The translations under genes were made by a program, and so were the position numbers. From a virus (taxonomy: Duplodnaviria; Caudoviricetes), in the IMG/VR virus record IMGVR_UViG_3300037067_022526, positions 1 to 64,000 of that record: a stretch of 64,000 nucleotides of DNA; one strand, 5' to 3'. Of this stretch, positions 1 through 22,051 are shown piece after piece; the first letter of the stretch is position 1, and every line of letters begins with the position of its first letter. The notes below the pieces were generated by a model. The model saw only the letters and a list, made by a program, of their open reading frames with translations. It had not been told where the DNA came from and did no database searches.

Positions 1-3000
1 GCTCGTGAATAATAATAAGCACCACTGGTACTTCCAGTGGGAAGTCCAGGACCTAGAATATGATTAGGACGACCATACGTGTCATAGCCATAACTGGTAG
101 TGTAATAAGTATTATTCGGATCACTGACTTGCGCGCCTGCAAAACGACCATCGATAGCACCATTAAAATCCCTATTAATAACCCAATTAGGGAACATAGA
201 CGATGAACCGAATGTTTCTTTGACTAAACGATATTCATTGGGGTCATTGGCATCGGCTATGCTAAAAGTTCTCGTCCCAACGGCATCGGTAATTTGTGAT
301 ACCTGTCCAATTCTGTCATATTGAACACTGATAGTTGGGGTTATATTTGGATCGCTATATGTTATACTTGTTAAATTAAGGATATTATTTGGATCATATC
401 CGAAAGTTGATATTTCATTTCTGTCCCACGTTCTAGTATGAATCCGGCCATCTGGGGTATAAGCATAATTAATTTCTGAGTTATCATTATAAGTTTTTTT
501 GTTTAATAATCCTGAGTACTCATCGAATTCCCATTCTGTGACATCTGCAGTGCCATTACTGTCCCGATATTTGCTCAATGATATTTTTTGCCCATAGTCG
601 TCATATTCAATTTCAAATTTGTACTGAGGATTTCCGTAGACGCTTGTCTTGTGCCCATGAGTGTCATATCCAAATAGAACAGACCTGCTTAGCGGGTCGG
701 TGATTGATTCTAACTTACTAGAATAAGCACCGTTGCCAGTTTCGCCCGGATCGTAATATGAATAGATTGTTTCCTCGTCGTTATCAGATGTAATACAATC
801 TATCCTACCGGCATTATCGTAAGAAATAGCGGTTTCGATTCCTCGCTCATCTGTGAAGCTAGATTTTCGGCCGAATGAATCATAAGTATAAATTGTTGTC
901 GTTCCAGATTTGTCGGTGAATTGCATAATTCGGTTGCCATGCAATATAGCCGAAAGATTTGTTGTACTATCCGGATAATCAACTGTAATAGTTGATAGTG
1001 ATTGCGATGGGTCAACCGAAACAGAAATATCTGTCGTTAAGTTGTGAACTTCATCGGTAACTCTTACCTCGCTAACCAATCCGATGGAAAACCCGGACAT
1101 CCTAAGTGCTATTGTTTTAATGGGAACTTCAGTGCTACTATCGGTTGGATATGTACTAGATTCAATGATTTTCCACCAATTATTAGAACCGTCCTTTTCG
1201 AATTTTGTCCCTGTATCTACAACATAATCTGTGCTAGACAAATCTAAAGCACCATTGTTTCCAATATCAGTACCACGTCGATTTATTTTTCCCATCGCAT
1301 CGTATTCATATCTGGTCGAAGGGAGAGTCACAGAAGAAGTTGATTTTGAAATTGAAGACAGTAATCCTGTTACATTATCATAATTATAAGTATTAGTTAT
1401 AGCATCATTAGGGTCATTCCATGCTGGTCTTTTAACCGATGAAATCTTTCCTAACATATTGTAGGTTTTTTCGGTGTATCGCACTGAATTAGAGTCATCA
1501 TATTTCATTTCTGTTATAGTGCCAGCTCCAGAACTATATTCGAATTCACGATATTTGGGCAAGGCGCCGCTAACTGATTTAACTCTGCCATCGCGATAAT
1601 ACGATATAACTCGATCTCTTAGCCCGGCGGTTCCCGAAGTTGCGCTGCTGGCATAATCAAAATATGTCAATATCTCTCGGTTGGTTGTATCATACTCATA
1701 CATTGTTTTGAGTGTAGCGACGCTGCCAGAATGACTATTTTTTGTTACTGCGATCAACCTTCCGGCCAGATCATATTCTTCAATTATTTGTTTTGATAGA
1801 GATCCGGAATTGCCCGTAATTATTGTTTGTAACGGTGTATCATAATTATAGCTTGTTATAATATCATCCTGAGTATAAGATCCACCAGATGGAACGCTTG
1901 CGGTTATCTCTGATATCCTATTCAACAAATCTAGTTCATATGTGGTTGAGATACCCGTAACGTCGGTAATAGTTTGACTGCAACAACTTCCATATTCGAT
2001 ATTATAATGTTGTCCGGTATTATAATACACATCGCCTAGTCTGGTTTGTCTATCACTTGAGTCATAAATATAATTAGCCCAGAAAATTGTATTAGTAGCG
2101 GCAGGGAGAGTAGATGTATCGGTGTTTATGTAAACCGCTGTGAATTCATAAACAAGTCTGCCTCTAGAATCTATTATGGCCACATCTACAGTAGATTTAT
2201 ATGGTAATGCTACAAAATTAGCCCCATCCACATATCCGTGTATTACCTGTCTATACCTATAACCATGCCCATCATCTCCATTGAGACTCCACGTTGGTTG
2301 TTCGGTAGATGGAGAATTTGTTGGCGTGAAACTAATTACATCATCATATGAATAAAGATCTTTGTGCCCATCGGGATATTGAATTGAAATTACGTCTTCA
2401 TGTGAACTGTCTCTATAGGTTATAACAGATGTCAATCCGGTGGAACCGCTCGGATTAGTCCTTGTATATTTCGTCGTAATATTGGGGTCATTCGAGTCAT
2501 AACTGTAATCAATATATTTGGTGTAATCACCATCTGTTCTGCTAACCAGAGACGCAAGACGATAATCTGATGCTGCATTGTATGTCATCTCTATCGACTT
2601 AACGCCAGAATCGTCTGCGTCCGGGCAGGTACTGGGATACGTAGTATCGCCCCAGCCGGTTATTATGGTTTCTGTCAAATTATTACCGTTTTTAGCAGAT
2701 TTATACCATGCCCACGAACCACCAGGATACTGTTCGCTTGTTAAAACAATTCCATTTGTGAGATCATAAGTCCAATTCGTGATAAGTGCATCATTCGCGT
2801 CGTTGGGATCTACAGGATAAATTGTTTTTTGAATCGGGTATGGATAAGTGCCATAAAAATTACATAGCACTTCTTCGTGATATACTTCAGTTGTGCCTAA
2901 ATGGCTAATGGTATGAGTGTATGTTGTTTCGCTTGGCTCATTGGGATCGGAATTCCATGTGAGTGCTTCGCTTTGCAACGTGGTAGTGTCATCAAGATAT

Positions 3001-3965
3001 GTTAAATCCCAATCTAAATCTGATACGCTTCCCGTGTACATAAATTTAATACGAGGAGTAGAGCTATTGTTCTCGACATATTCGGCTATTCGAAGTCTAT
3101 TATAGCTTGACGATGTATCGGGATTATCAACGACCCACTTTTTAAAGAATCCTTCTCCAGTTTGGTCGTAAATTCCATTATCTAAATCACCTATATCATT
3201 GCTTCCATAAAAAGCAATTGAATAAGAGTATTCATTAATATCAACAATATCAACAAGCAAAAACGGAGCTGATGATGGACCAACAAGGATTTGTCTTAGA
3301 ACCGATGAATTATTGGGATCATAAATAACATCAATGTCCGATTCATTTGTGTCTGCAAGAGTATATATTAAATTTGTTGGTTCCGACAAGTCTTCGGTTG
3401 GTTGTTGGGCAGATATTTCCAAATAGCCAGCTGGATCTCCATCGGACCGAGTTCCCAGATTGAATCTAGCATGCATTCCATTAATATCTAAAAATGTGTG
3501 GAAATTAGGGCATGTGATACAGCTATTTTCAGCGTAATTATTAGCATAGTTATTATAGTTATCTCCGACTACATAGAATGACATTTCAAGTTCCAGGGGG
3601 GTATCATCGCTTTCTTTTCCGCCGCATGGAATGGCCATATCATCTACGGTTACAAACATTTTATAAAATCCCACTTCATCTGCGGTGAAAGTGGATATTT
3701 GTGTTGAGCTAAGTTGGGTATACAGGCCACATGGTTTGCATATCCAAATTTTGCTGATATAAACCTCATCTATGTCACCGCCGCCAGTGTCCATATCACG
3801 AAAACAACTCGCTGTTATCGGAATCTGGCTGCCCAATTGGACTAAAAAGACTGGTGGTTGAATCATTTCAATTGGCGGATCAGCCCAGCAAGTCGCATGC
3901 ACTTTTGGTGCAACTAGGCACATTGCCATGAAACATAGCGAAAGGATTAAATTTTTAAAATTCAC
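1..3965 (-). CDS. Rhs/YD-repeat protein with N-terminal signal peptide (3' end runs off the window)
   Basis: Manual translation: GGAG RBS then GTG at 3965, MNFKNLILSLCFMAMCLVAPKVHA (signal-like). The same frame is open at about 10 spot checks down to position 1, with YD motifs (ISYDNAGRI, YGYDTYGRP). Absent from the ORF track because no stop lies in the window. Confidence 0.85.
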   Translation of the reverse strand, partial: MNFKNLILSLCFMAMCLVAPKVHATCWADPPIEMIQPPVFLVQLGSQIPITASCFRDMDTGGGDIDEVYISKIWICKPCGLYTQLSSTQISTFTADEVGFYKMFVTVDDMAIPCGGKESDDTPLELEMSFYVVGDNYNNYANNYAENSCITCPNFHTFLDINGMHARFNLGTRSDGDPAGYLEISAQQPTEDLSEPTNLIYTLADTNESDIDVIYDPNNSSVLRQILVGPSSAPFLLVDIVDINEYSYSIAFYGSNDIGDLDNGIYDQTGEGFFKKWVVDNPDTSSSYNRLRIAEYVENNSSTPRIKFMYTGSVSDLDWDLTYLDDTTTLQSEALTWNSDPNEPSETTYTHTISHLGTTEVYHEEVLCNFYGTYPYPIQKTIYPVDPNDANDALITNWTYDLTNGIVLTSEQYPGGSWAWYKSAKNGNNLTETIITGWGDTTYPSTCPDADDSGVKSIEMTYNAASDYRLASLVSRTDGDYTKYIDYSYDSNDPNITTKYTRTNPSGSTGLTSVITYRDSSHEDVISIQYPDGHKDLYSYDDVISFTPTNSPSTEQPTWSLNGDDGHGYRYRQVIHGYVDGANFVALPYKSTVDVAIIDSRGRLVYEFTAVYINTDTSTLPAATNTIFWANYIYDSSDRQTRLGDVYYNTGQHYNIEYGSCCSQTITDVTGISTTYELDLLNRISEITASVPSGGSYTQDDIITSYNYDTPLQTIITGNSGSLSKQIIEEYDLAGRLIAVTKNSHSGSVATLKTMYEYDTTNREILTYFDYASSATSGTAGLRDRVISYYRDGRVKSVSGALPKYREFEYSSGAGTITEMKYDDSNSVRYTEKTYNMLGKISSVKRPAWNDPNDAITNTYNYDNVTGLLSSISKSTSSVTLPSTRYEYDAMGKINRRGTDIGNNGALDLSSTDYVVDTGTKFEKDGSNNWWKIIESSTYPTDSSTEVPIKTIALRMSGFSIGLVSEVRVTDEVHNLTTDISVSVDPSQSLSTITVDYPDSTTNLSAILHGNRIMQFTDKSGTTTIYTYDSFGRKSSFTDERGIETAISYDNAGRIDCITSDNDEETIYSYYDPGETGNGAYSSKLESITDPLSRSVLFGYDTHGHKTSVYGNPQYKFEIEYDDYGQKISLSKYRDSNGTADVTEWEFDEYSGLLNKKTYNDNSEINYAYTPDGRIHTRTWDRNEISTFGYDPNNILNLTSITYSDPNITPTISVQYDRIGQVSQITDAVGTRTFSIADANDPNEYRLVKETFGSSSMFPNWVINRDFNGAIDGRFAGAQVSDPNNTYYTTSYGYDTYGRPNHILGPGLPTGSTSGAYYYSR

Positions 3966-4162
3966 TGCTTTTCTCCAAGTTGTTTTGATAGCCCTATTGC
4001 TATCATCTGTCGAGTATTATACTCAACGAATTTGCATAAATCCAGAATTAAATCCGCCCAGTCGAAATCATTAAGGTTTCCCTAAGTCATAAAGGATTAA
4101 CAAGTAGAATTTTGTTAATGAATATATGTATATATTTAACCCATTATCACAAGGAGACTACA

Positions 4163-4372
4163 ATGCCTAAAGCATCCTGTCTCGGTAATTGTGAAAAACG
4201 GAAAATTAGAGTCAATGACAATCAATTATGTGATTGGTTTGAGCTTAGAAAAAAGCCCAAAAGATATCATGTTATGTGTGCTCATTGCAAACACTTTACC
4301 AAAATAGATATAAGCAAAGAAAATCCAGGCAAGGAAAATAAAAATCAGGATTCCGATAAAATTGGTGATTGA
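4163..4372 (+). CDS. small Zn-ribbon-like hypothetical protein
   Basis: AAGGAG RBS before ATG 4163; CLGNC and CAHC pairs. Confidence 0.6.
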   Translation: MPKASCLGNCEKRKIRVNDNQLCDWFELRKKPKRYHVMCAHCKHFTKIDISKENPGKENKNQDSDKIGD

Positions 4373-4448
4373 ATCCGTTGTATAATAATTATATAGAGAG
4401 TTCTAACGATATCTGGTTGAGATATTGAAATTTATTTTGGAGATCATC

Positions 4449-4871
4449 ATGAAAGTATATGATGTTTATCTGGCGGGGTATCCCGACATATCGTGGCGAG
4501 AGTCCTTTTTGTCTTTAATTGATGAAAGTATTACGGTTTACGATCCAATTATTGATGAATATAAAAGACTAAATCATGAGGAAAAAGCCGATTTAGTAGC
4601 TAGCGAATTAGAGTTCATTGAGAAAAGCGAGATTATTGTATTTTATTTATGCAAAAAATGGCAAAGCTATTTCAGTATGCTACAATTGGGCGATGCAGTA
4701 GGTAGAGGTAAGCAGGTTGTTATCTGTATCGCAGATACAATTGACTCTGAAGAAAAAATTAGACGATATTGTGAATATCGTGGCATTATTGTCGTGGAGA
4801 GTCTAGACGATTTGGTGTCAACTGTTGAAGAGTATTTGGCAGAAGTAGAACTATGTGCAGTTAATTTGTGA
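4449..4871 (+). CDS. nucleoside 2-deoxyribosyltransferase-like protein
   Basis: VYLAG...WRE...VYDP...ELEFIEKSEIIVFYL...LGDAVGRGK pattern of the NDT-like fold. Confidence 0.65.
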   Translation: MKVYDVYLAGYPDISWRESFLSLIDESITVYDPIIDEYKRLNHEEKADLVASELEFIEKSEIIVFYLCKKWQSYFSMLQLGDAVGRGKQVVICIADTIDSEEKIRRYCEYRGIIVVESLDDLVSTVEEYLAEVELCAVNL

Positions 4872-5917
4872 TTTTAAAACAAGCTTTAAATCCAGAACAA
4901 AAAGTTTTAATTATCTATGATACTCACGCTGGTTTTGTCCAAAAACCAGCAATATTCAAAGAGTATCAGAGTATAATACTGAATAACATTTCGCACAGAA
5001 TCCCAGTTTTTGATTGCAATGGAGTCAAAATTACTGGAACGGAATGTTTTTGGATACCGTTTCAAAAAAATACATCACAAGATGAAATTCGAAGATTACA
5101 ATGTGAATTAGTTCCATTACAAATAAGTGCCATAGAGGCGAGTGCTGAATTGGGATATGAAATACCACGTAAAATTAAAGATGTCGAGGTCAAAAAAATG
5201 GCAGAAGAGAATATCACCAGAACTCAAGCTATCATTAAAAAATTAGGTTTTGATCCACGAGATGAGTCGTGGATTGAAAGCGAAATGGCAATTACAAATA
5301 GAGAGAGGAATTGGTATCGATTCGAGAGAGAAAACGATGCCATTTTTAATAATAGTTGGGATGGGATTGTTTCTACTTTTAACAAACAATACGGCGACAA
5401 TATCAGCTTAAATGAAGCTCAAATTCTATCTAAAAAACGGAACCGATATATCTTGGGGGCGTATATGCTTCGCATGTCCGGTAATGCCAACAAAAGAGAA
5501 TGGGCAAAATCGGCCAAAGAATTTGAGATTAGACATCGCGATATCGAAAAAAGAATGAACGACTGGAGTCAAAAACACATTAATAACTTTCCAACAGTAA
5601 AAACCAAGAAACCGATTGGATTCTTTTTCGGTCCCTACTATAATCAGTGCATAGAGCGTGCCCCGAGATATTTTAGCGATGTCAATTGTAATATGATAAA
5701 AGAAGGCACAACTCTACGGGTGATATCTTTTGATCCTGTATCTAGGTGTATCCGGTTGGATTTTCCGTTAGTTGTCCGAGAAGACATAAAAGGTAAAGAC
5801 GGCAATAATACGCCGTGGATTAAAAATGAACCTGACTATGAATTTTTTGTTAAACCAGATGAAATTGAGGAGTGTTTAGAGATTGTTTCAGGAGATGATT
5901 TGTGGCTAGAAACCTAA
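4868..5917 (+). CDS. hypothetical protein (349 aa)
   Basis: long ORF, GTGA overlap with the upstream stop. Confidence 0.75.
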   Translation: MILKQALNPEQKVLIIYDTHAGFVQKPAIFKEYQSIILNNISHRIPVFDCNGVKITGTECFWIPFQKNTSQDEIRRLQCELVPLQISAIEASAELGYEIPRKIKDVEVKKMAEENITRTQAIIKKLGFDPRDESWIESEMAITNRERNWYRFERENDAIFNNSWDGIVSTFNKQYGDNISLNEAQILSKKRNRYILGAYMLRMSGNANKREWAKSAKEFEIRHRDIEKRMNDWSQKHINNFPTVKTKKPIGFFFGPYYNQCIERAPRYFSDVNCNMIKEGTTLRVISFDPVSRCIRLDFPLVVREDIKGKDGNNTPWIKNEPDYEFFVKPDEIEECLEIVSGDDLWLET

Positions 5918-6111
5918 GAAAAGTAATAAGTCAGGCATGCAAACAGATTACCAAAGAAGTCATATGTTTGTGGCGCGATAGGAAAGATTATTTAGATAAG
6001 GCTGAATTATTAGCCAACAGCAGGCAATTAGAAGATCTATATAACTTTAGACGAGGACAATTCGCGGCGATGAATAAAAACCAAAATAACAGATATATAG
6101 GTTAAAACTTA

Positions 6112-6924
6112 ATGACGATTTCGTGTAAATATATCAACTGCCCAGATACTCATTTTTCTGACAAAAATTTAAATGACAGAATTTTTCCCGATGATTTTAT
6201 TAACCACATTATTTGTGGTGATTGTTCTGTTGTTTTAAAAATTATCCCAAATTCATCTATTAATTTGATTATCACATCTCCGCCGTATTTTGTGAATAAG
6301 AGTTATGAAAACACATGGACTTTTGAAGAATACTCTTTTTTGATGAATTGTGTATTTAAAGAATGCTATCGTATTTTACAACCAGGCGGATATGCTGTTT
6401 TTAATTTCGGCGATTATTTTAATAAGGACCGATTTTATGAAGCAGAAGTGCCAAGTGTTTATCCTGCTTCAATAAATTATTTTCAATGGGGCAGAGATGT
6501 TGGATTTGATTTACAGGCAACTCGTATTTGGCGCAAGCAATTTTCACGCATGTCAATACCGTTTGTATGTAACACTCATCCACGACCAATTTTTGATTAT
6601 GAGCACATTTGGACATTTCGTAAACAAGATGGAACTGGCAAAGAATTTGTAAATGATCGTAAAAAATCTCAAAGAGCCGTTTTAGGAGAAGATTGGACTG
6701 CGCCTGCTAAATTACAAAATCACGAAGCAGCTTTTCCGATTGATTTACCCCTGTGGGCTATCGATGTTTATGCTCGGCCGGATGATATTATTTTAGATCC
6801 ATTCGGGGGCATAGGAACAACAATGTTGGCTGCCATTGAAAAGAAGCATAAATGTATTATAATTGAGAAAAATGAAAGCAACTGCAAGTATGCATATCGT
6901 AGAATTAGAGGGCAGGAGATCTGA
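6112..6924 (+). CDS. DNA methyltransferase, beta class, probably N4-cytosine
   Basis: IITSPPY catalytic motif precedes ILDPFGGIGTT SAM-binding motif; HEAAFP. Confidence 0.9.
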   Translation: MTISCKYINCPDTHFSDKNLNDRIFPDDFINHIICGDCSVVLKIIPNSSINLIITSPPYFVNKSYENTWTFEEYSFLMNCVFKECYRILQPGGYAVFNFGDYFNKDRFYEAEVPSVYPASINYFQWGRDVGFDLQATRIWRKQFSRMSIPFVCNTHPRPIFDYEHIWTFRKQDGTGKEFVNDRKKSQRAVLGEDWTAPAKLQNHEAAFPIDLPLWAIDVYARPDDIILDPFGGIGTTMLAAIEKKHKCIIIEKNESNCKYAYRRIRGQEI

Positions 6925-7394
6925 AATGCGGAGAAATAAGTGAGCAGTCGAGCGTTCCTGTCTGAGAACTGGCATCAATCTCCAGCAGTTATTGTTTTTA
7001 AATGTCAACCCGTGCCGCTTTTGCTCTGCTTTGCACAACTAGGGCATGCAGGAGCGTGGCAGTATGGCATATGTATGCACAAACTACAATCAGAAGCGAT
7101 AGGTCGTTTTTCTTGCCCGAAATGTTCTGCCACGTATACATTACGACAATATCCCGGGTTTTGGCAACTCAAAGCGGACAGTCCCATGAACCCCAAATTG
7201 GAAGATATACAAACATTTTCAGTGAACCAAGAATATAAGAACTGCTTAGTTGATTGAAGGTGAGCCACCGTGGAGTGAAAAATAACCATGCGATAGAAGC
7301 GAAAGAGGACAACCGGAGCCATCTGCCGTAGAACAAAATATGTTACGAGCTATCTCCAAACGATTGATCCCCGGGCATCGCAAATGAGGAAGAT

Positions 7395-9041
7395 ATGAGC
7401 CAGACCGTTCGTACCCGTTTCGCGCCGTCGCCGACCGGCTATTTGCACATCGGCGGAGCGCGGACGGCGTTGTTCAACTACCTGCTGGCCAAGCGGCTGG
7501 GCGGGAAATTCGTGCTGCGCATCGAGGACACCGACCAGACCCGCAACATCGAGGCGGCGGACCAGAAGCTGCTCGAAGACCTGCGCTGGCTCGGACTGCA
7601 GTGGGACGAGGGTCCGGAGGTCGGCGGACCGCACGGGCCCTACCACCAATCGCAGCGCCGCAAGCTGTATGACGAGCACGCCCGCCGGCTGCTCGACGCC
7701 GGCCAGTCCTACTACGCCATGGAGACGCGCGAAGAGCTCGACGCCATGCGGAAGGCCGCCCAGCAGCGCGGCGAGAAGGGCTTTCGCTATCCGCGGCCAA
7801 CGCACTTCCCGTCCGATGCCGAAGCGCAGCAGGCCCGCGACGCCGGCCGGCCGGTGGTCGTCCGCTTCAAGATGCCGCAGCGCGACTTCGTCGTGCCCGA
7901 CCAGATCCTTGGCGACGTGGCGATCGGGGCGGCGGAGCTGAGCGACTTCGTGATCGTGAAGAGCGACGGCTGGCCGACGTACAACTACGCCGTGGTCGTC
8001 GATGACGCGTCGATGCAGATCACCCACGTGCTCCGCGGCCAGGAGCACCTGATGAACACGCCGGGCCAGATCGCCCTCTACGAGGCCTTCGGCTACGCGC
8101 CGCCCGAGTTCGCGCACCTGCCCATCATCTTCAACATGAGCGGCACGAAGATGAGCAAACGCGAGAAAGACAAGGTGGTGCGTGACGCGGCGAAGGCGGC
8201 GCAGCTCGACGATGCGCGCCTCATGACGCTGGCGGGCGTGGACGACGCCGCGCTGGCGTCCTGGCGCAAAGGCGACACGCAACTGCCGGGCGAGGCCCTG
8301 CAACGGTTGGCCCGCGCGCTGCACGTGCGCTTGCCGGAAATCGAGATCCACGATTTCCGCCGGAGCGGGTATTTGCCCGAAGTGCTGGTGAACTTCATCG
8401 CGCTGCTGGGCTGGTCGCCGGGCACGGACCAGGAGAAGTTCACGCTGGCGGAGCTGTGCCAGGAATTCCGCGTGGAGCGCGTCGGCAAGACCAACGCCCG
8501 TTTCGACCGGGACAAGCTGCTGAACTTTAACACGACGGCGCTGGAGGCGGCGCCGGCGGCCCGGAAGCTGGCGGCGTTTCGTGATTTCCTCAGCGTGAAT
8601 GAGCCGGGGCCGTTGACCGGCCTCGACGATGCGCAACTCGCGCACCTGATCGAGCTCTGCCAGGGGTTCCGCACGTTCCCGGACATCGAATACAAGTGCG
8701 GGGCGCTGTTCGTCCCGGACGCGGCCGTGCGCTACGACGACGACGCGCTCAAGAAGCACTTGTTGAAGGGGGAGTCGGCCGGCGTGAAGGTGCTGACGGA
8801 GATGCGGACGCGGTTGGCGGCGCTGGACGACTGGTCGCCGGCGCGGCTCGACGGCCTGATCCGCAGCTATGCCGAGGAGCATGGCCTCGGGCTCGGCAAA
8901 GTGGCACAGCCGCTGCGGGTGGCGGTGACGGGGACGACGGTGAGCCCGCAGATTTTCGACACGCTGGCGGTGCTGGGGCGGGACCGGACGCTGGCCCGCA
9001 TCGCGCGCACACTGGAAATGGTGGCCGGCGCTGCGAAATAG
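7395..9041 (+). CDS. gltX: glutamate--tRNA ligase (GC-rich, foreign composition)
   Basis: RFAPSPTGYLHIGG, LRIEDTD, THVLRGQEH, KMSKR, C-terminal PLRVAVTG...SP; GAGGA RBS. Confidence 0.97.
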   Translation: MSQTVRTRFAPSPTGYLHIGGARTALFNYLLAKRLGGKFVLRIEDTDQTRNIEAADQKLLEDLRWLGLQWDEGPEVGGPHGPYHQSQRRKLYDEHARRLLDAGQSYYAMETREELDAMRKAAQQRGEKGFRYPRPTHFPSDAEAQQARDAGRPVVVRFKMPQRDFVVPDQILGDVAIGAAELSDFVIVKSDGWPTYNYAVVVDDASMQITHVLRGQEHLMNTPGQIALYEAFGYAPPEFAHLPIIFNMSGTKMSKREKDKVVRDAAKAAQLDDARLMTLAGVDDAALASWRKGDTQLPGEALQRLARALHVRLPEIEIHDFRRSGYLPEVLVNFIALLGWSPGTDQEKFTLAELCQEFRVERVGKTNARFDRDKLLNFNTTALEAAPAARKLAAFRDFLSVNEPGPLTGLDDAQLAHLIELCQGFRTFPDIEYKCGALFVPDAAVRYDDDALKKHLLKGESAGVKVLTEMRTRLAALDDWSPARLDGLIRSYAEEHGLGLGKVAQPLRVAVTGTTVSPQIFDTLAVLGRDRTLARIARTLEMVAGAAK

Positions 9042-9830: not shown

Positions 9831-9970
9831 TGCAAGATTTTGTCAATTATATAGCAACAGCGGTTGAAGGATCGATTAGATTCGTAATTTGTTCGTTCTT
9901 GCTATTAATCCCGATCATAATTTTAGGAGTTTGGAAGCTAATTGAAATTATAATTTGGATGTTTAATTAG
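9827..9970 (+). CDS. small membrane protein (47 aa)
   Basis: ATGA overlap with pth2; hydrophobic FVICSFLLLIPIIILGVWKLIEIIIW. Confidence 0.55.
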   Translation: MMQDFVNYIATAVEGSIRFVICSFLLLIPIIILGVWKLIEIIIWMFN

Positions 9971-9983
9971 TTGAGGAAATTAG

Positions 9984-10319
9984 ATGCCAGAATCGTTCGG
10001 TAGTTATTTCAAAAAGTGTCGCATTGCTAAGAAGATTACATTGCGATCATTTTGCAAGCAGAACAATTTTAATCCGGTAGATATTAGCAGAATTGAGCGT
10101 GGAATGATCCCACCACCTAAAAACAAAATTATTGAATATGCTGTAGCACTGGGGTTACAACCCGAGCAGAATGAATGGCTAGAATTCATTGGGCGTGCGT
10201 CGGCAGAGTTTGGAGATATTCCCAGAATACTCAGTGACGAAGAGATTGTTAAGAAATTGCCAATTTTTTTAAAAACTAACAAACCCAGTGATTTGATAGA
10301 AAAAATAAGGAGAGCCTAA
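9984..10319 (+). CDS. XRE-family HTH regulator
   Basis: FGSYFKKCR...TLRSF...ISRIERG...PP. Confidence 0.85.
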   Translation: MPESFGSYFKKCRIAKKITLRSFCKQNNFNPVDISRIERGMIPPPKNKIIEYAVALGLQPEQNEWLEFIGRASAEFGDIPRILSDEEIVKKLPIFLKTNKPSDLIEKIRRA

Positions 10320-10325
10320 AATAAC

Positions 10326-10399
10326 CCGAGGGAGCGCATTTGGTAAGTGCGGGCAGTCTTATACACTGCTGTTAATGGGTTCGATTCCCGTCTCTCGGA
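10326..10399 (+). tRNA. tRNA-Ile(UAU)
   Basis: acceptor CCGAGGG/CTCTCGG; anticodon arm GCAGT-CT TAT AC-ACTGC; T-arm ATGGG-TTCGATT-CCCGT; no encoded CCA. Confidence 0.8.
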
Positions 10400-10408
10400 T
10401 CAGATTAT

Positions 10409-10483
10409 GGACCAGTAGCCTAATTGGTTTAGGCAGGAGACTGAAGATCTCTGCATTGTCGGTTCGAATCCGGCCTGTGTCCA
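10409..10483 (+). tRNA. tRNA-Phe(GAA)
   Basis: anticodon arm GGAGA-CT GAA GA-TCTCT; T-arm GTCGG-TTCGAAT-CCGGC; acceptor stem has a 1-nt bulge. Confidence 0.75.
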
Positions 10484-12960: not shown

Positions 12961-13674
12961 ATGAATGACGAAAAATGTGAAATCATTACTGACGCGTCCG
13001 CGCTGCGGCAGGTATCAGCTCCTGTAGATTTGAATTCAGATTATCTCCCAAAAATAAATAAATTATTGCAATCATTTCCCGCTCAGCATTTAGGATTGGC
13101 TGCACCACAAATTGGTATATTCGAGAGATTTTTTGTTGCCAACTTGTCGATCGGTCGATTCGTATTTGTAAATCCACAATTAAAACTTCAACCCTCAACA
13201 ATCGCGTCCACGGAAGGATGTTTGTCCGTGCCAAATGTGCAAAAGACCATTCTCCGTCATGAATTTATTTCTATCAATGCGGACAAAATATTTAAGGTTG
13301 TAGGCGGATCTGTTGTAACTCCATCAGTTTGTACATTCGGATCAGAAGAGTCCAAATTGGACACCAAACTTTGTGGATTAGATGCCTGCGTTATTCAACA
13401 CGAATATGATCATTTGGAAGGCGTATTAATCATAGATCATGGGGATGTGCTAAACCCTGGTGAGCAAAGAAAGCGTCGGGAAGAAAAAAAGTTACAGAAG
13501 AAAATAGAGAAGAAGAAACTCAAGAGAAATCAGAAATCTCAACAAACCACCATAAAAATTAGTGACAATCAATTAAAAGAATTAGATAGAAAATTCAAAC
13601 TATCTGAAAAGCGAAATAAGAAGCGTGTCGAGATACAAGAACGACAACGAGCAATTCGGGAAGAGTCAATATAA
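12961..13674 (+). CDS. def: peptide deformylase with long basic C-terminal tail
   Basis: GLAAPQIG, EGCLS, QHEYDHLEG. Confidence 0.95.
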   Translation: MNDEKCEIITDASALRQVSAPVDLNSDYLPKINKLLQSFPAQHLGLAAPQIGIFERFFVANLSIGRFVFVNPQLKLQPSTIASTEGCLSVPNVQKTILRHEFISINADKIFKVVGGSVVTPSVCTFGSEESKLDTKLCGLDACVIQHEYDHLEGVLIIDHGDVLNPGEQRKRREEKKLQKKIEKKKLKRNQKSQQTTIKISDNQLKELDRKFKLSEKRNKKRVEIQERQRAIREESI

Positions 13675-13779
13675 ACCATTGATTTCAAGACAGATTCAAC
13701 AAAAAATAAAGTATAGAAGGAATGCTACAATCTGCCACTGAATGTTGCTCTAAAATGATATTTAGAAGGAATAGAAAAT

Positions 13780-16101
13780 ATGGAGCAAAATTTTACTCGC
13801 GAAGATACTTTAAAATTTTTTGGTGGCGATGAATTAGCAACGGACGTATATCTGAAGAAGTATGCGGTAACTAAACCAGATGGCACGATTATAGAATTTT
13901 TACCAACTCAAATGTGGGAAAGGATGGCGGTAGCAGCCGCATCTGTAGAAAAAAATCCCAATAAATGGCAAGAAAAATTTTACGAAGTCCTGTCGGGGTG
14001 GAGAGCAGTTCCACAGGGCAGCATAATGTTTGCTCTTGGCAATCCATATCAAAAATCATCATGCTCAAATTGTTTTACTTTACCAATTAAAGATGACAGT
14101 CTAGAAGCAATATTTGATACCGCCAAAGAAATGTCTCGAACGTATTCTTATCGCGGTGGTGTCGGCGTTGATATCTCTCCATTACGCCCAGCGGGATCAT
14201 TAGTTTCTAATGCTGCACGAACATCTACTGGTGCGTGGTCTTTCATGGATTTCTATAGTTATGTAACCAGATTGATCGGACAACATGGTCGCCGTGGTGC
14301 TTTAATGATAACCATTGAAGATAAGCACCCTGATTTGATTAATTTTATTACGTCAAAAACTAACAAGTCTAAAATAACAGGAGCTAATATTTCTGTAAAA
14401 ATAAGCGATGCATTTATGAAGGCGGTTGAAGATAATTCTATTTGGATTATGGAGTTCAAAACAAAACACGAGATTATACATAAAGAAATGCCAGCAAGGG
14501 AAATTTGGGATCTGCTTGTTAAAACAGCTACAGAAACCGCTGAACCAGGAATATTATTTTGGGATAATATATTAAAAGAATCTCCCGCCGATTGTTATGC
14601 CGATGTCGGATTCAGGACGACTTGTGTAAATCCTTGCGCAGAACTCCCCCTTGCAAATTACGATGCATGCACTCTTCTGTCGCACAATTTAACCACATAC
14701 ACTCGCAATGATTTTACTCAAGATGCATATTTTGATTTTGACCAGCTTGAAAAAGATATACATATATCTACCCGATTTCTGGATAATGTTAAAACAATAG
14801 ATCTTGAACTGATGCCCCTAAAACGACAAAGGGAGGTTGCAGCTAAAGGACGACGAATCGGCATGGGCACTAATGGTTTAGCCGATGCTTTAGCTAATTT
14901 GCGTATCAAATATGATTCAGATGAGGCAATCGAATTTGTTGGCAAATTATACGAATTTTTTGCTAAGACAGTTTATCAAATATCAGTAGAACTAGGCAGA
15001 GAAAAGGGTGTCTTCCCGATATTTGATGCAAAAAAAGAAAAAGGACACCCATTTTTGGAAAGAATTGGATTTGCCGGCAAGGCTCGTCGCAATATGGCCT
15101 GTTTGACATGTGCCCCTACCGGTTCTTTGTCAGCTATTTGTCGAACATCATCAGGTATTGAATCGGTTTTTAAAAATTCATATACCCGGCGGCGCAAGAT
15201 AACTCACAATGAAGCAGTCAATATACCCAAATCACAACTTTATAAAGATGAAATGGGAGATTTGTGGCAAGAATATACGGTGGTTCATCATAATGTTACT
15301 CGGTATTTGTCTCTCAGGGGGTTAGAGAATACGCCTGAGGTAAAGCTTCCCAAGTATTTTGTCGAATCTCATCAGATAAATTGGGACAAGAGAATTAAAA
15401 TACAAGCTACAATGCAGAAATTTATTGACCACAGTATAAGTGCGACTGTAAATCTGCCAGTAGGGACAAGTCCAGATGAAGTTAAAAAAATATATGAAGC
15501 AGCACATAAATATGGATGTAAAGGTTGTACTGTATATGTAGACCAATCCAGAGCCGGTGTACTTGTAACAAATGAAGCACCGACAAAAATCATCAAAACA
15601 GATGCTCCCAAACGTCCGAAAGAAATGAAATGCGATGTTCATCATATTACAGTTAAAGGAGATTTGTATTTCGTAATGGTGGGTATGCTCGAAAATGAAC
15701 CCTACGAAGTCTTTGCTGGTAAAAACGGATTATTCGATAGTAAAGTAAAAACCGGCGTGATAACTAAAGTCAAGAGAGGACAATATCAAGCCACGCTAGA
15801 TGATGGAACCACAATTGACAATATTGGAGAACACATAACCGATGAACAAGCTGCTGTTACGAGATTAATTTCTCTATCATTGAGACATGGAGCGGATATT
15901 AAACATTGTGTTAGTGTGCTAGAAAAAGTACCTGGTGATTTACAAAATTTTGCAAAATGTATTGCCAGGACCCTTAAGAAGTATATACCTGACAACACTA
16001 AGGTGACTGGTTTCACTTGTTTGGGATGTGGATCTAATAACATTGTTCGCACTTTGGGGTGCAAACAATGTCTTGATTGTGGTTGGTCTGCGTGTAATTA
16101 G
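13780..16101 (+). CDS. nrdJ: adenosylcobalamin-dependent (class II) ribonucleotide reductase
   Basis: SNCF, GGVGVDISPLRP, RRGALM, NPCAE, APTGS, C-terminal PKRP domain and Zn ribbon; no beta-subunit gene nearby. Confidence 0.9.
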   Translation: MEQNFTREDTLKFFGGDELATDVYLKKYAVTKPDGTIIEFLPTQMWERMAVAAASVEKNPNKWQEKFYEVLSGWRAVPQGSIMFALGNPYQKSSCSNCFTLPIKDDSLEAIFDTAKEMSRTYSYRGGVGVDISPLRPAGSLVSNAARTSTGAWSFMDFYSYVTRLIGQHGRRGALMITIEDKHPDLINFITSKTNKSKITGANISVKISDAFMKAVEDNSIWIMEFKTKHEIIHKEMPAREIWDLLVKTATETAEPGILFWDNILKESPADCYADVGFRTTCVNPCAELPLANYDACTLLSHNLTTYTRNDFTQDAYFDFDQLEKDIHISTRFLDNVKTIDLELMPLKRQREVAAKGRRIGMGTNGLADALANLRIKYDSDEAIEFVGKLYEFFAKTVYQISVELGREKGVFPIFDAKKEKGHPFLERIGFAGKARRNMACLTCAPTGSLSAICRTSSGIESVFKNSYTRRRKITHNEAVNIPKSQLYKDEMGDLWQEYTVVHHNVTRYLSLRGLENTPEVKLPKYFVESHQINWDKRIKIQATMQKFIDHSISATVNLPVGTSPDEVKKIYEAAHKYGCKGCTVYVDQSRAGVLVTNEAPTKIIKTDAPKRPKEMKCDVHHITVKGDLYFVMVGMLENEPYEVFAGKNGLFDSKVKTGVITKVKRGQYQATLDDGTTIDNIGEHITDEQAAVTRLISLSLRHGADIKHCVSVLEKVPGDLQNFAKCIARTLKKYIPDNTKVTGFTCLGCGSNNIVRTLGCKQCLDCGWSACN

Positions 16102-16112
16102 GAGACTAGAAA

Positions 16113-16652
16113 TTGGAAATTAAGGTGAAAAAGCTGCACCCCGACGCAGTGTTGCCTAAATGTGCGAACGAAACTGATGCTGGTTATGATTTAGTCGCAA
16201 TTGATGAGGGAGAAATTGTTAGTGAAGGTCTTGATATTATGTACATACAATATAGGACTGGTATAGCAATAGCACCACCCGAAGGATACCATACCGAGAT
16301 ATTTCCAAGATCAAGCATTAGCAAGAAACAATTGTTTCTTGCTAATTCCGTTGGATTAGTCGATTGTGTTCCAAGAGACACTCTAATTTCAACACCAAAC
16401 GGAAATATTGTAGTGCAAGATTTATTCGAGAAAAATGACAAATCATTGATATGCTCATTTAATGAAACTGATTTTTTGATTGAAGAAGACACCGTTTCGG
16501 ATATGTGGATAGTTGATAATATTGAATTATATCAAATACAAACGGATGAAGGTGATATTTTAGAGATTCCAGCCAATAAGCTAGTATATACAGATAATGG
16601 ATGGAAAAAGGCATGCGAATTAAAAGAAAATGATAATATTTTAAAATTTTAG
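16113..16652 (+). CDS. dut: dUTPase N-terminal half (84 aa) plus N-intein (95 aa, from 16365)
   Basis: DAGYDL, PRSS, NSVGLVD followed by CVPRDTLISTPNG...GWKKACELKENDNIL. Confidence 0.92.
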   Translation: MEIKVKKLHPDAVLPKCANETDAGYDLVAIDEGEIVSEGLDIMYIQYRTGIAIAPPEGYHTEIFPRSSISKKQLFLANSVGLVDCVPRDTLISTPNGNIVVQDLFEKNDKSLICSFNETDFLIEEDTVSDMWIVDNIELYQIQTDEGDILEIPANKLVYTDNGWKKACELKENDNILKF

Positions 16653-16708
16653 ATTTTACCAAAGGAAAATGTCTCCTCTATAGATAATTGATTATAGAGG
16701 AGATGTTT

Positions 16709-17659
16709 ATGATAAAAACAAAAATATGTGTAGAGTGCAAAGAGGAATTTATACCAAACAAGTATCGACAAGACGTGCAAAAATTATGCTCAAATAAATG
16801 CGCCATAAAATACAGGGGCAGAAAAAGACGTAAACGAGTCGATATAGCGTGCATAATGTGCGGAAAAATTTTTACTGTTGTTAAATCTAGATCTGATGCA
16901 AAATTATGTTCCAGAAAATGCCAAAGAAAATATTATTTAAGTGATCAGAATCCAGGCCGGAGACGAAAAAAAATAATCTGCAAAATTTGTAAAAAAGAGT
17001 TTGAATGTTCAAACTATGAAAATCGGATATTTTGCTCATTGAAATGTTTTGGAAAAAGTATTGAGGGAGTATCCCGCAAGAACGAAAAATCCCAGATATC
17101 TTTACATTGTCTAAATTGTAACAAAGTTTTTACAGTTTGGAATTATAGAAAAGATGCCTTGTTTTGCTCAAAAAACTGCAAAAATCAATCCAACAGAACA
17201 TCAAAAATATGTCAGAGTTGCGGAAAGTCCTTTACTGTTCCTGTTTATTTAAGTTGCAGAATATTTTGTGGGCAAGAATGTGCCGCGCGCGGAGTCGGCA
17301 AACGAATATCGATGTTTTCCAAAGAAATCACTCAGTTTCTGGATGATAATAAGATTGTTTACAAAACAGAACGACCAATCAAAGGCGATAACTTTAAATA
17401 TTTTGTTGACATATTAATTGATAATATTGTAATCGAATGTTTCGGTGATTATTGGCATTGTACACCTGATAAATACGGTCCTGATTATTATCACTCTCAA
17501 ATTAAATTAAGTGCGAAAGAAATTTGGGACAGAGACGCCTTGAGAATAGATCGTATTCGAAATAAAGGATTTCGAACAATGATAATCTGGGAGGGCAAAT
17601 TCAATCAAAACAAGAACAAAGTACAAAAGGAGATTTTAAATGAAATTTGTAAAAATTAA
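16709..17659 (+). CDS. free-standing Vsr/DUF559-like homing endonuclease with Zn-finger repeats
   Basis: repeated CxxC...F/LCSxxC units; VDILID...IECFGDYWH...RD...GFRTMIIWE. Confidence 0.85.
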
Positions 17660-17954
17660 ATCAATAAACAAAAGCAGAGTTGCTCCGATATATCATTTAA
17701 CCGTTGAAAAAAATCACAATTTTTTTGCTAATAGATTATGCGTACACAATTGTGGGTATCGCAATGAAGTTCTTGTGCGTTTCAAGTATGTTGGGCATCA
17801 TAGCTTTTCGGCGGATACATCTAAGATATATTGTAAAGGCGACAAAATCGCTCAGCTTGTAATTCGAAAAACTGAGAAAATGGATTTTAAATTTGTAGAT
17901 GAATTAGATGCAACTGAAAGAAATCTGGGAGGATTTGGGTCTACGGGTAATTAG
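17640..17954 (+). CDS. dut: C-intein (37 aa) plus dUTPase C-terminal half (67 aa, from 17751)
   Basis: MKFVKIKSI...[20 protein letters not shown]|CGYRNEV...GDKIAQL...[10 protein letters not shown]. Confidence 0.92.
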
Positions 17955-20137
17955 TATCTTGCTTGCCAGTTGCTATTTGTAACAATCTGTTCGATTGATT
18001 TATTTTCTAAATCAGACACAAGTCCCCGAGGAGTGCCACCTGTAGTAAGATACCAGTATATAAAAGTTTCTGCCTGTAACGTTGACAATTTATATTGTGA
18101 TTTGACTCGATTTATAAGATTCGCACCAACAGCCTCTTTCTCTAGATGCGCTAACTGAATGACGTTATATCTTCCTTCTCCTAAATCTTGCGGTGTGAGA
18201 AATTCTTTTACCCGTTCGCCTCCCATTTGTTGTGGTATTCTTTCGTATAGATCTCTCGACCTTTCGGGTATTCTTGTCCATTTTTGTTTTTGCATCTCGT
18301 AAGAAGTGATATACAAACTCTTGCCAGCTGCCTTAGCAAGTGTTATAACCATGTCTAACATTACCATAGGCCAATGTCTAAATGTTTTATTCCAAAAAGC
18401 AAGAGCAAGAGCTTCGTCATAAGCTGTATTATCCGGATAACTTAGATTTATAGGTGCTGAATCTTCCTTTCGGTACCATTGTCCGTCTTTCTTGGTAACA
18501 TATCCCTCTTGAATCTCTTTTATTTTTTCCCGTGTATTTTCTGATAGCGCTAAAATATCAGCATCGGTTTGTAGGTTATCAATTATCCAGTTGCCATAGT
18601 CTTCTTCACTAACTCTGCAATAAGCAATATTCCCATAATGGTGTCCTCTGTTGTTGACCAATTTTGTTAACATGTCTCTGGCATATGGGCACATTGCATC
18701 ACCAAAATTTTTCAACAGCGATGAAGGAGACATTGTAAAGGTCATTGATGGAACATCTGGTTCGCCATAGGATTCTTCGATATCAAAGCGACATGGAATC
18801 ATTTTGATATTTTTCAAGCCAGGATATTTGTTGGCGAATTCTTTTTGTGCATTATCGATTCTGGTTAAATAATCAATAATTTGCTGTATATTTTCATGTT
18901 GTTCCAAAAGAAGTTTGATATAGCTTAAATATTCACCCTTTAAATTTCTCTTTTTTGCAAAATCAAGTATTATTTGAGGATGTATTGGAGAATCAGGAAA
19001 TTTTTTCATAGCCGCATCAAAAAACGGGAGATACGTTTTTACTATATCTGCCGAACTAATTGGTAGCATCTCAGAAAGATCTAAATTTTCTTTTGACATT
19101 AAAGCCTGGTAGTCACTATATTCAATTGCTTCTACTGCTTTTTTACAGTCATAACAATATATTCCGTCGTGGATAAATTGGACATATTGCCCGTAGTCAT
19201 CGCCTCCAACTACACATCTGCCACAATTATCACAACAGGTCATTTCCATTCGGTCTTTACACTTATCGCACACCCATCCTTCAAAACCATTAAGTGTCAT
19301 GTCGCTTGTAAAATGCATCGCTTCCTTTTCATTTTCTACTTTCTCAGAACAACTCTCACAGTTGGGCAAATCATCATAGCACTCCTCGCAATATATCTCA
19401 TCAAGTTCATGGATATCATCTCTGCCGGGTATTATTTCGTCACCGCATTTGCTACAGAAAGATATTTCCCATTTTTCACAATCATCACAGATGGGTTTTA
19501 ATTGTTTAACCTTAAATTTACTGAAATTTATTGCTATTAAGTTTGCAGTATTATCCCGCATTCCATCCAGCTCATTTATTCTATCAAAAACGCCTTTATA
19601 AGTAGTATAATACCCTTTAGTTGCAGGCATTAAAGATATATAAATGTGAGAATTTGTATATGGATATAATGGGGATGCAGATAGAGCATTAGATAAATCT
19701 GAATAAAAGTCCCCACATACTTGTTTATTTTGAATTTCACTATCGTCTAAATTTTGTTCTGAATATGTTTGTTCATGCATTTGTTCTAATCTTAATAAAT
19801 AATTATTTAATATCTGTCGATATTCATTCATTAGCTTAGCAATTTCTTCGGAAATTATATTTTGGTCAATGTTAATTCCGATCGATTCGCTAGAAAATAC
19901 ATTGCCTTCTTTGTCGCGGTCAGACCAATAATTCACTCTGACAATATTTTCTACCTCTTCATTGCATAGAGCACATCTCCACCTGCCATCTGCATCGGGG
20001 ACTTTTTGTGCATCATTTTCTAGAAAAGAAGTATAATATGAAATATCATGGTAGGGTAGAACTTGCTGGGTCTGGGCAGTTTTAATGGCAAATTCCCAAT
20101 GTCGGCAAGTTCGTATTTTAGGATAAATCCGAAGCAA
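17951..20137 (-). CDS. hypothetical protein with multiple CxxC motifs (728 aa)
   Basis: long ORF with AGGAG RBS before TTG; about 9 CxxC pairs. Confidence 0.8.
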
Positions 20138-20212
20138 AACAAACTCCTAGAATATATAATTGACCATACGCAAAAAGGTTATTGCAATCCTTTAGTGGTA
20201 TTTTAGATCGAT

Positions 20213-22051
20213 ATGGGTAATACAGGTGATCTCCATTTTCAGCCGGTTTTGCACAATATCACGGCGGACGAGGTAATTTTTTGCTATCGTGCAGGCGATG
20301 CTGATTCGTTGGATGTAGCAGAATATTATAAATCAGCTCGTGGTTTAGATGCAGACCATTTAATTCCACTTCCTTGTGGTTTTGATAATATCATTATAGA
20401 ACAAGAGTACATTGATACCATCGAAACTCCATTGCTACAAAAACTTAACAAATTTACCGAATCTACTAGCGCGTCCTCGGGTAGCCATCGAATTTGGGTT
20501 ATAATTTTGGGATATCATATACCTCATGCCTATTATGTGGACAATGATCCCTACGGAGAAACAATTGCAATTGCCAGCAGATTGCATCGACTAGGAAAAA
20601 ACAAGAGTTATAAATTTCCCAATTTTGTATATGATCGTAAATCTTGGTCATATTTCGACCAAGAGGATGCCTCAGAATTTTATATCACAGCTATCATCGA
20701 TGGTCCATCTGTTCTTGTTGCCAAGAGATTAATAGACAGATCTGTCGATATTGATAATCAATTATTTGTTACTGGCTCTATTTATGTTGATCCTTTTGGA
20801 AAACAGGATACAGAAAGTCAGTTAAAATTTCAATCTGATGTATTGGAATTTGTATCATTCACAATCCCCAATATGGGTATGGATCACAAAATAACGGCAG
20901 AATTGCCAGGTGAAGATCCAATGGTGCACTTTTTTAAGAATGATTCCTTTTATTGGGGATGGTATACGCCTAGATATTCGAGTAATTTGTTTATCAATCA
21001 AAATGAAAGGCGAGTTTTTCTATACAATGCAGATGATGACTCTGCTTCGGATTTATCAAATGATTTGAGTGGGGAAAGTGACCCTTGGTGTAACATTGCA
21101 ATTAATATAGAACCCGGATATGCAGCCTGTGGTGGTGCCGTAAGCGCACCTGGTGAAGATGCGTATCTAAGAGCGCGACCATTTTTTGAATCCCTACAGA
21201 GAGGTGCATCTTTGGGTGAATCATTTTTGTTTGCGTCTCCCTATGTCGATTGGAAAATTGTTTTAATTGGTGATCCATTATTAGTAATTAATTTTCCTGC
21301 GAATCTTCCGCCCGAATTGGACCTGCAAAACACCAAAATTCCAAACAAAGAAGTTATACGTCGGACAAAAAATATACTTGAAGATGCTATTGCGTGGCAA
21401 TACAGGCAACCAGATATCCTGGAAGATTTGATTGAATTTAATTATAAATCCAGCAATGTGTCCGAACAATTGCCACTTATGTATCACTTAAAATCATGGT
21501 ATCAATCAAAATCTATTTCGACTAGAAATCAAATGCTATCACCGATCGTGTCAAAGTGGATAACTTATATACTAAACACCGAAGGAACATCTCTTCAATC
21601 GTGGTTAGAAACTTACCAAGAGAAGGCAAGTTCATACCTTAATAATGTAATTGAAACAGTGTCTAATAAAATACCTGATAATTTAGTGCATCCTTTGGGG
21701 CATTGGGAATATGAATTTGTTTACACTCATCCGCGAAAAGCGTTTGAAGACGTTTTTTTTAATCTTCAAATATCGGACTCGAATACATTTGCAACTATAT
21801 TAGCTAATATTAATAGCTACACTGCAATTGGTGGGTGGAGATACGAAAGTGAACCACATATTTTTGTTCAAATCGGCACCTCGGGAGTGCCATCAAATTA
21901 TAGCGGTCGCCGAATTAAATATACGTCACAAGAGTCAGATTACCTCACATCACTTGGCTTATATTATATTCGATGGAGAGCATGGGATAGTAATGGATCT
22001 CCAATTGGGGATTGGAATATAGATTCTATACAAAAAATCATATCGAGATAG
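20213..22051 (+). CDS. TIGR03790-like protein
   Basis: DSLDVAEYY..AR, WGWY, GAVSAP, GASLGESFLFASP..W..VLIGDPL pattern. Confidence 0.65.
   Translation: MGNTGDLHFQPVLHNITADEVIFCYRAGDADSLDVAEYYKSARGLDADHLIPLPCGFDNIIIEQEYIDTIETPLLQKLNKFTESTSASSGSHRIWVIILGYHIPHAYYVDNDPYGETIAIASRLHRLGKNKSYKFPNFVYDRKSWSYFDQEDASEFYITAIIDGPSVLVAKRLIDRSVDIDNQLFVTGSIYVDPFGKQDTESQLKFQSDVLEFVSFTIPNMGMDHKITAELPGEDPMVHFFKNDSFYWGWYTPRYSSNLFINQNERRVFLYNADDDSASDLSNDLSGESDPWCNIAINIEPGYAACGGAVSAPGEDAYLRARPFFESLQRGASLGESFLFASPYVDWKIVLIGDPLLVINFPANLPPELDLQNTKIPNKEVIRRTKNILEDAIAWQYRQPDILEDLIEFNYKSSNVSEQLPLMYHLKSWYQSKSISTRNQMLSPIVSKWITYILNTEGTSLQSWLETYQEKASSYLNNVIETVSNKIPDNLVHPLGHWEYEFVYTHPRKAFEDVFFNLQISDSNTFATILANINSYTAIGGWRYESEPHIFVQIGTSGVPSNYSGRRIKYTSQESDYLTSLGLYYIRWRAWDSNGSPIGDWNIDSIQKIISR

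Follow-up and report, generated by a model that had tools for sequence, protein, structure and literature searches.

[quoted passage not shown]

Introduction

Among inteins, those most widely used as protein-ligation tools include the split inteins of fractured phage genes (gp41-1, NrdJ-1, IMPDH-1). Such genes were described by Dassa, London, Stoddard, Schueler-Furman and Pietrokovski in 2009 for gp41-1, NrdJ-1, IMPDH-1, NrdA-2 and others, and the eight host types of that study, with gp41, IMPDH, DnaE, NrdA, NrdJ, DNA ligase and terminase among them, do not include dUTPase (PMC2677866). I-Bth0305I (PDB identifier 3R3P), the prototype of the EDxHD homing endonuclease family, is encoded within recA, by a group I intron, and uses two NUMOD/HTH motifs (PMC3239194). 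Among the residues of the intein itself, the His of block B is the most conserved and is essential in most inteins (PMC4031507, PMC10663303); it is known to be missing only from the orthologues of the Tko CDC21-1 intein and from one pseudogene, and position F:4 is occupied, in order of frequency, by Asp, Cys and Trp (PMC4031507; PMC6333167; PMC10663303).

We describe here the dUTPase gene of a 138-kb phage, which consists of two half-genes, each carrying one half of an intein, with a nuclease gene between them. The locus resembles the genes of Dassa et al. (PMC2677866) in that the gene of a phage DNA-metabolism enzyme is broken by a split intein into two ORFs on the same strand, a free-standing gene for a Vsr-like endonuclease lies between the halves and overlaps the ORF of the C-terminal intein half (IntC), the halves are of similar size, and the intein is of the Cys1/Cys+1 type. 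It differs from them in its host, dUTPase, in a block B that reads PxxK rather than TxxH, in a His at F:4, and in an endonuclease whose N-terminus consists of zinc modules, whereas the endonucleases described there carry NUMOD motifs. An earlier note, made from the sequence of this DNA, had likened the layout to that of fractured genes with Vsr-like endonucleases, a comparison that the published account bears out, and had suspected that the dUTPase case was new. A full-text search of the literature found no report of a dUTPase intein, split or otherwise, and in this respect the suspicion stands; dozens of clusters of the same kind are nevertheless present in public metagenomes. The fractured-gene layout is of a known kind and the dUTPase host is new with respect to papers only.

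Anatomy of the locus

The window, by which we mean the whole stretch of DNA that was analysed (64,000 nt; positions 1 to 64,000 of IMG/VR record IMGVR_UViG_3300037067_022526), holds three plus-strand ORFs at 16113-17954, with coordinates that agree with those of the earlier note exactly to the codon. The first ORF (16113-16652, + strand) begins with a TTG behind AGGAG, encodes 179 residues and ends with a TAG at 16650-16652. Its first 84 codons (16113..16364) are the N-extein of dUTPase with motifs I-III, the last residues being GLVD, and the remaining 95 codons with the TAG (16365..16652) are the N-terminal intein half (IntN), which opens with Cys1 in C-V-P-R-D-T, has P-A-N-K as its block B and contains no His. 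The nuclease gene (16709..17659, + strand) follows with its own ribosome-binding site and stop; its frame is open from 16688, and a ribosome-binding site, GAGGAG, points to ATG 16709 as the likely start. Counted from that ATG, it has 316 codons and a TAA at 17657-17659, which accounts for the 317 codons of the earlier description. The third ORF (17640-17954, + strand, 104 aa) overlaps the end of the nuclease gene by 20 nt and starts with an ATG behind AAGGAG. Its first 37 codons (17640..17750) are IntC, with the block F sequence I-Y-H-L-T-V, in which F:4 is His, and a C-terminal HN; the other 67 codons and the stop (17751..17954) are the C-extein, which begins with the +1 Cys (17751-17753), continues with GYRNE and contains motifs IV-V. 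The ORF coordinates thus bear out, to the codon, the sizes that had been given for the halves (84 + 95 aa and 37 + 67 aa). Two same-strand ORFs are collinear with an intact homologue, the N-intein ends the first, the C-intein begins the second, and the endonuclease ORF stands between them, as is expected of a fractured gene.

Both extein halves are recognizable as dUTPase on their own, with Pfam dUTPase (PF00692) scores of 27.8 bits for the N-half and 28.0 bits for the C-half, both above the curated cut-off of 22. Residues 1-91 of the N-half align with solved dUTPases (E 2.8e-10), and the family profile of the C-half matches solved dUTPases (E 5.9e-17) starting at the residue after the motif III Asp. 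All five dUTPase motifs are found across the joined halves, viz., AGYDL, PRSS, GLVD-CGYRNE, GDKIAQL and GGFGSTG. Residues 3-37 of IntC match positions 120-155 of the 155 positions of the Pfam Intein_splicing profile (E 6.6e-7), and this match stays below the cut-off because only the C-terminal 35 positions exist in IntC. The C-half was further aligned with 24 other IntC-dutC proteins.

Positions 17627-17659, the final codons of the nuclease gene, also contain the ribosome-binding site for IntC and, in another frame, its first seven codons. As the C-terminus of the nuclease and the N-terminus of IntC (M-K-F/Y-x-K-I-K) are each conserved in the family, this short segment is under a double coding constraint. 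Downstream, a 728-aa ORF on the minus strand (17951-20137) converges on the C-terminal half-gene, with the 3' ends overlapping by four bases; it has many CxxC pairs and a 719-aa orthologue in a sister contig, and no Pfam or PHROG family matched it. A promoter scan gave a number of sites not above that in shuffled sequence. Terminator-like sites number 4 as against 1.2 in shuffles, with none on the plus strand within the cassette.

The cassette as an insertion into an intact gene

A sister contig from NCBI (L016) encodes an intact 151-aa dUTPase (P0002), and its dut gene has the same flanks as that of the window, viz., a 773-aa ribonucleotide reductase (RNR) gene and a reverse-strand gene of about 720 aa. 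By BLASTN, positions 13001-16364 of the window match positions 1916-5252 of this contig at 85% identity and positions 17754-21000 match positions 5256-8475 at 79% identity. Since collinearity breaks at 16364 and resumes at 17754, the window has 1386 extra nucleotides (16365-17750) after the codon of Asp84. The codon that follows the motif III Asp is TGT (Cys) in the window versus GGC (Gly) in the sister contig, where the empty site reads …GTCGAT/GGCGGATAC…, the slash marking the site. The claim that joining the halves restores motif III as GLVD-CGYRNE in an enzyme of 151 aa is upheld by this allele, with which the joined exteins align over 151 residues with 132 identities and zero gaps. Two IMG/VR contigs (L001 and L002) likewise carry intact dUTPase alleles, of 152 aa, behind the same RNR gene.

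We searched for traces of the transfer itself. A co-conversion tract beside the insertion was not found, the identity per 30 nt between the window and the sister contig being flat. A close donor of the cassette was not found either, the nearest dutN-IntN protein being 53% identical, and a search of GenBank phage DNA returned no relatives of the cassette and only weak matches (68-73%) within the RNR gene. Other genes of these phages also show signs of inteins. In L001 the syntenic ribonucleotide reductase (31-3903) has 1290 aa with, by eye, an apparent inserted intein sequence, an insertion not seen in the reductases of the window (13780-16101, 773 aa) and of L016. In L016 a gene at 9936-10456, which lies downstream of the intact dut by about 4.5 kb, matches the Pfam families Intein_splicing and MJ0330_N, so that this phage is intein-rich as well, though its dut is uninterrupted.

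We propose that the 1386-nt stretch in dUTPase motif III is, very probably, a mobile cassette, composed of IntN, the gene of a free-standing EDxHD-type homing endonuclease and IntC, which would have inserted directly after the codon of the catalytic Asp. The dUTPase gene would now be expressed as two polypeptides, whose 95-aa IntN and 37-aa IntC are expected to associate into one HINT domain and to trans-splice, joining Asp84 to Cys+1 and thereby yielding a 151-aa dUTPase with motif III as GLVD-CGYRNE. The endonuclease, in turn, would cut intein-free dut alleles of co-infecting relatives, upon which repair would copy the whole cassette into the cut allele, and translation of the endonuclease is probably limited by a hairpin over the ribosome-binding site of its gene. 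The intein belongs to a clade that is specific to dUTPase and has an unusual active site (P-x-x-K in block B and His at F:4). In what follows we take up the anatomy of the halves, the polymorphism of the insertion, the conservation of the element across its family and the fold of its nuclease, all of which the analysis shows, whereas splicing, homing and control by the hairpin are inferred.

The intein halves and their contiguous relatives

The IntN sequences of 11 loci were combined into a profile. It matches the intein of Ssp DnaB (PDB identifier 1MI8) with an E-value of 5e-7, and further matches are the NrdJ-1, DnaX and Npu DnaB inteins; the Ssp and Npu DnaB mini-inteins and gp41-1 (PDB identifiers 1MI8, 4O1R, 6QAZ) are the closest solved HINT domains. 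Two relatives, P0190 (284 aa) and P0132 (293 aa), are dUTPases with a contiguous mini-intein at the same site as in the window. A third, P0170 (499 aa), has a larger contiguous intein with T-E-D-H as block B, situated one residue downstream (GIIDS/C…HN/CYRGE), and in it an apparent HNH motif was seen by eye. When the halves of the window are aligned onto P0190, the break falls in the loop that normally accommodates a nested endonuclease. The contiguous P0190, which stands in for the two chains of the window, was modelled with a pLDDT of 84-97 over the intein, and the model superimposes on the DnaB, gp41-1 and NrdJ-1 inteins with TM scores of 0.81-0.88 (0.86-0.88, with an RMSD of 1.5-2.0 Å, for Ssp DnaB, Npu DnaB and gp41-1). 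By way of this contiguous relative, the model indicates a HINT fold for the dUTPase intein. Unlike it, the DnaB and gp41-1 inteins have a canonical TxxH in block B, Asp at F:4 and other host proteins.

A non-canonical active site

N- and C-halves on the same contig were paired by a BLAST-based procedure, which gave 33 non-identical loci. The junction residues of a class 1 intein are present in the window (C1, HN, C+1) and in 33/33 of these loci, with Cys1, a terminal His-Asn and a Cys at +1, which is Ser in some TxxT loci. At -1 stands the Asp of motif III, the invariant extein residue that serves dUTPase as its catalytic Asp, or, where the register is displaced by one codon, Asn.

The interior of the active site departs from this class, a point that the earlier note had missed. 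In place of the T-x-x-H of block B the window has P-A-N-K, with no His throughout IntN, and F:4, usually Asp, is His. In the profile alignment P69 of IntN falls on Thr70 and K72 on His73 of Ssp DnaB, and both are invariant in the 11-member IntN alignment. Positions B:7 and B:10 were surveyed in dUTPase N-halves with IntN, represented by 69 clusters (50% identity); the survey found P/K in 36 clusters, S/K or A/K in 4, T/T in 15, T/Q in 7, T/S in 2 and T/E in 2. The canonical T/H occurs in one, that of the contiguous P0170, and there are two other single cases, plus one misaligned row (P0132). Among the paired loci, PxxK is combined with His at F:4 in 25, with Tyr in one and with Phe in one; one locus has SxxN with His, and five have TxxT with Asp. 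Sister subclades have TxxT or TxxQ in block B and keep the Asp at F:4, and related inteins in other host genes, taken from the same contig set with both halves paired, have TxxH with Asp. An account in which the His moved from block B to F:4 is weakened by the two PxxK loci with Tyr or Phe at F:4.

With PxxK in block B and His at F:4, the first splicing step, the N-S acyl shift, needs non-standard help, and since IntN is without any His, a residue usually essential, the activity of the intein in the window hinges on a putative compensating mechanism. In the literature accessible to us we found no description of the PxxK/His combination. As far as the work of Tori et al. (2012) is related in PMC4031507 and PMC6333167, the nearest parallel is the Tko CDC21-1 intein, which is likewise a natural class-1-type intein with Cys1 but without a His at B:10, and for which a compensating lysine has been proposed. 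In those accounts the proposed compensating residue, Lys58, is not part of any conserved block, whereas the window has Lys at B:10 itself, Pro at B:7 and His at F:4; moreover, unlike the small Tko CDC21-1 group as it is related there, the dUTPase inteins are naturally split, phage-borne and form a large family. We put at about even chances the wider proposition that the dUTPase split inteins are an active and widespread lineage whose first step proceeds free of the block B His, with Pro at B:7, Lys at B:10, His at F:4 and the extein Asp at -1 possibly helping in the subclade of the window.

The same residues bear on the question of whether the halves are ligated at all. The nuclease-split NrdA of phage Aeh1 has been described as docking without covalent ligation (PMC3045599), and the intein halves might similarly do no more than hold the two dUTPase pieces together, the enzyme being a non-covalent assembly. 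The missing block B His and, in the subclade of the window, the missing Asp at F:4 make it conceivable that catalysis was lost and binding kept. Pure docking domains, however, would have no need of Cys1, the His-Asn and the +1 Cys or Ser that all 33 loci retain, P69 and K72 would hardly be expected to be invariant, and the enzyme would probably not tolerate a break left unjoined inside motif III, beside the catalytic Asp. We therefore consider such docking improbable and trans-splicing the better reading of the halves.

The nuclease gene and its hairpin

The earlier note had described the product of the middle gene as a zinc-finger and Vsr-like nuclease, and both parts of this description hold. 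The C-terminal domain (aa 197-316, the last 120 residues) was modelled by AF2 with a pLDDT of 92, and Foldseek searches initiated with it returned I-Bth0305I (3r3p) first, with TM scores of 0.74-0.77 and an E-value of 5e-4, and Vsr (1cw0) next. Residues D38, E47, G50, D51, H54 and D80 of the domain are invariant in 12 homologues and correspond to the EDxHD signature (PMC3239194), as expected of an EDxHD/Vsr-like catalytic site. Compared with solved structures by sequence alone, the nuclease gave no significant match (E 0.05-0.7; 0.2-0.6 for I-Bth0305I), so the EDxHD/Vsr-like identification rests on the fold search; Pfam gave MTES_1575/DUF559, below cut-off only. The gene is present in a single copy in the genome.

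The region preceding this domain (aa 7-190) is made up of five CxxC…CSxxC zinc modules, of which relatives have 3-6. They may resemble zinc ribbons of the FCS/TRASH type. Pfam gave no NUMOD family, the N-terminal 190 residues being zinc modules. The nuclease thus shares with I-Bth0305I, its best structural match, the fold of the catalytic domain and the conserved acidic and His catalytic residues, and differs from it in being free-standing between intein halves and in having five C4 zinc modules.

The nuclease gene has its ribosome-binding site, GAGGAG, covered by a 17-bp hairpin (16667..16708, + strand) whose end lies one base ahead of ATG 16709. The 91-nt segment that contains this hairpin has a folding energy of -20.9 kcal/mol (z -4.14), and 0/200 shuffles fold as well. 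Several related loci have hairpins of unrelated sequence in this position, most clearly L019/L024 and L033, and the position of a hairpin upstream of the endonuclease start agrees with the description by Dassa et al. (PMC2677866).

Spread, selection and mobility of the family

In metagenomes the dutN-IntN proteins form at least 69 clusters (50% identity), and among the related loci there are empty sites as well as contiguous mini-inteins, nuclease genes in decay and loci from which the nuclease gene has been lost. Decay takes the form of a remnant in L021/L022 and of a frameshift in L028, and all junction residues persist in the halves of these loci. In L112 (2404-3297) and L120 (2336-3306) the nuclease gene is absent and the halves are separate ORFs about 65-70 nt apart, with the splice residues intact. 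These two loci look like an end state after the loss of the homing endonuclease gene, and halves that outlive the nuclease gene would be expected if splicing remained necessary to the host once the selfish gene was dead.

The ratios of dN/dS speak to the same point. Distant intein pairs are saturated and were left out, and the three close pairs that were used gave values of 0.077, 0.147 and 0.083 for IntN, one of these pairs being L017, with a full nuclease gene, and L021, with only the last ~57 nuclease codons. By these ratios IntN is under purifying selection. For the exteins, compared with the intact allele of L016, the value is 0.05, close to the 0.035 of the neighbouring RNR gene; the low value of the exteins may in part be older than the insertion.

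dUTPase is dispensable in many phages, and one could imagine that a selfish insertion has turned the gene into a pseudogene with functionless halves, the phage relying on the Dut of its host. The non-canonical active site of the intein would fit such a loss. Both halves have, however, kept the five dUTPase motifs and their own start codons and ribosome-binding sites, the dN/dS is low in the exteins as well as in IntN (0.08-0.15), and the arrangement has been retained over dozens of diverged lineages, even after loss of the nuclease gene. We hold this explanation to be improbable as well, and return to the mobile, trans-splicing cassette as the preferred one.

Several observations support homing of this cassette. 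The intein is more conserved than the exteins (mean identity 51% versus 39%, with the intein higher in 68/78 pairs), it occurs in clearly different dUTPase lineages, in some of which motif III continues as D-Y-Y-x-N, and it is present in one sister phage and absent from another. In L036/L037, P0104, P0120 and P0130 the PxxK intein lies one codon further into motif III (…VDN/C…HN/CYRG…), so the PxxK clade uses two insertion registers. A TxxT subclade (L034:2582-3481, L038:859-1788, L129:1773-2852 and L140:2073-2972) has Asp at F:4 and an IntN that begins with C-F-S. Between its halves lies a free-standing nuclease gene of another kind, whose product has a small zinc finger at the N-terminus and a PD-(D/E)xK domain with Pfam matches to TnsA-like N-terminal and Phage endonuclease I.

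It may also be asked whether the break lies in RNA rather than in protein, i.e., whether the nuclease gene sits in a self-splicing intron within the gene of a contiguous mini-intein, which would be translated as one precursor and spliced in cis. EDxHD nucleases are indeed known from group I introns too (PMC2677866, PMC3239194). The Rfam intron families, however, gave no match over 15900-18200 at E-values up to 1, on which ground a group I or group II intron was rejected. Moreover, the stop of IntN always lies within a few residues of the same position, IntC always begins with Met-Lys behind a ribosome-binding site, and the ~65 nt between the separate ORFs of L112 and L120 leave no room for an intron. 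We give this explanation very little credence. An artefact of assembly or sequencing is scarcely credible, for nothing specific favours it beyond the origin of the window in a metagenome-derived virus record, and the same three-gene layout with the same split point recurs in independent assemblies from JGI, ENA, NCBI and Logan.

Implications

The locus in the window leads to a large natural family in which every stage in the life cycle of such an element is represented, viz., the empty site, the contiguous mini-intein, the split intein with a nuclease gene, the decayed nuclease gene and the loss of the nuclease gene. Sister phages with and without the cassette define the homing target exactly. 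If the dUTPase inteins splice, they would allow catalysis of the N-S acyl shift without the block B His to be tested directly on a natural system, and clear mutational predictions follow for the Lys at B:10, the His at F:4 and the Asp at -1. A first step free of this His, if it proves true, would amount to a new way of catalysing protein splicing, and split-intein tools would gain a new scaffold.
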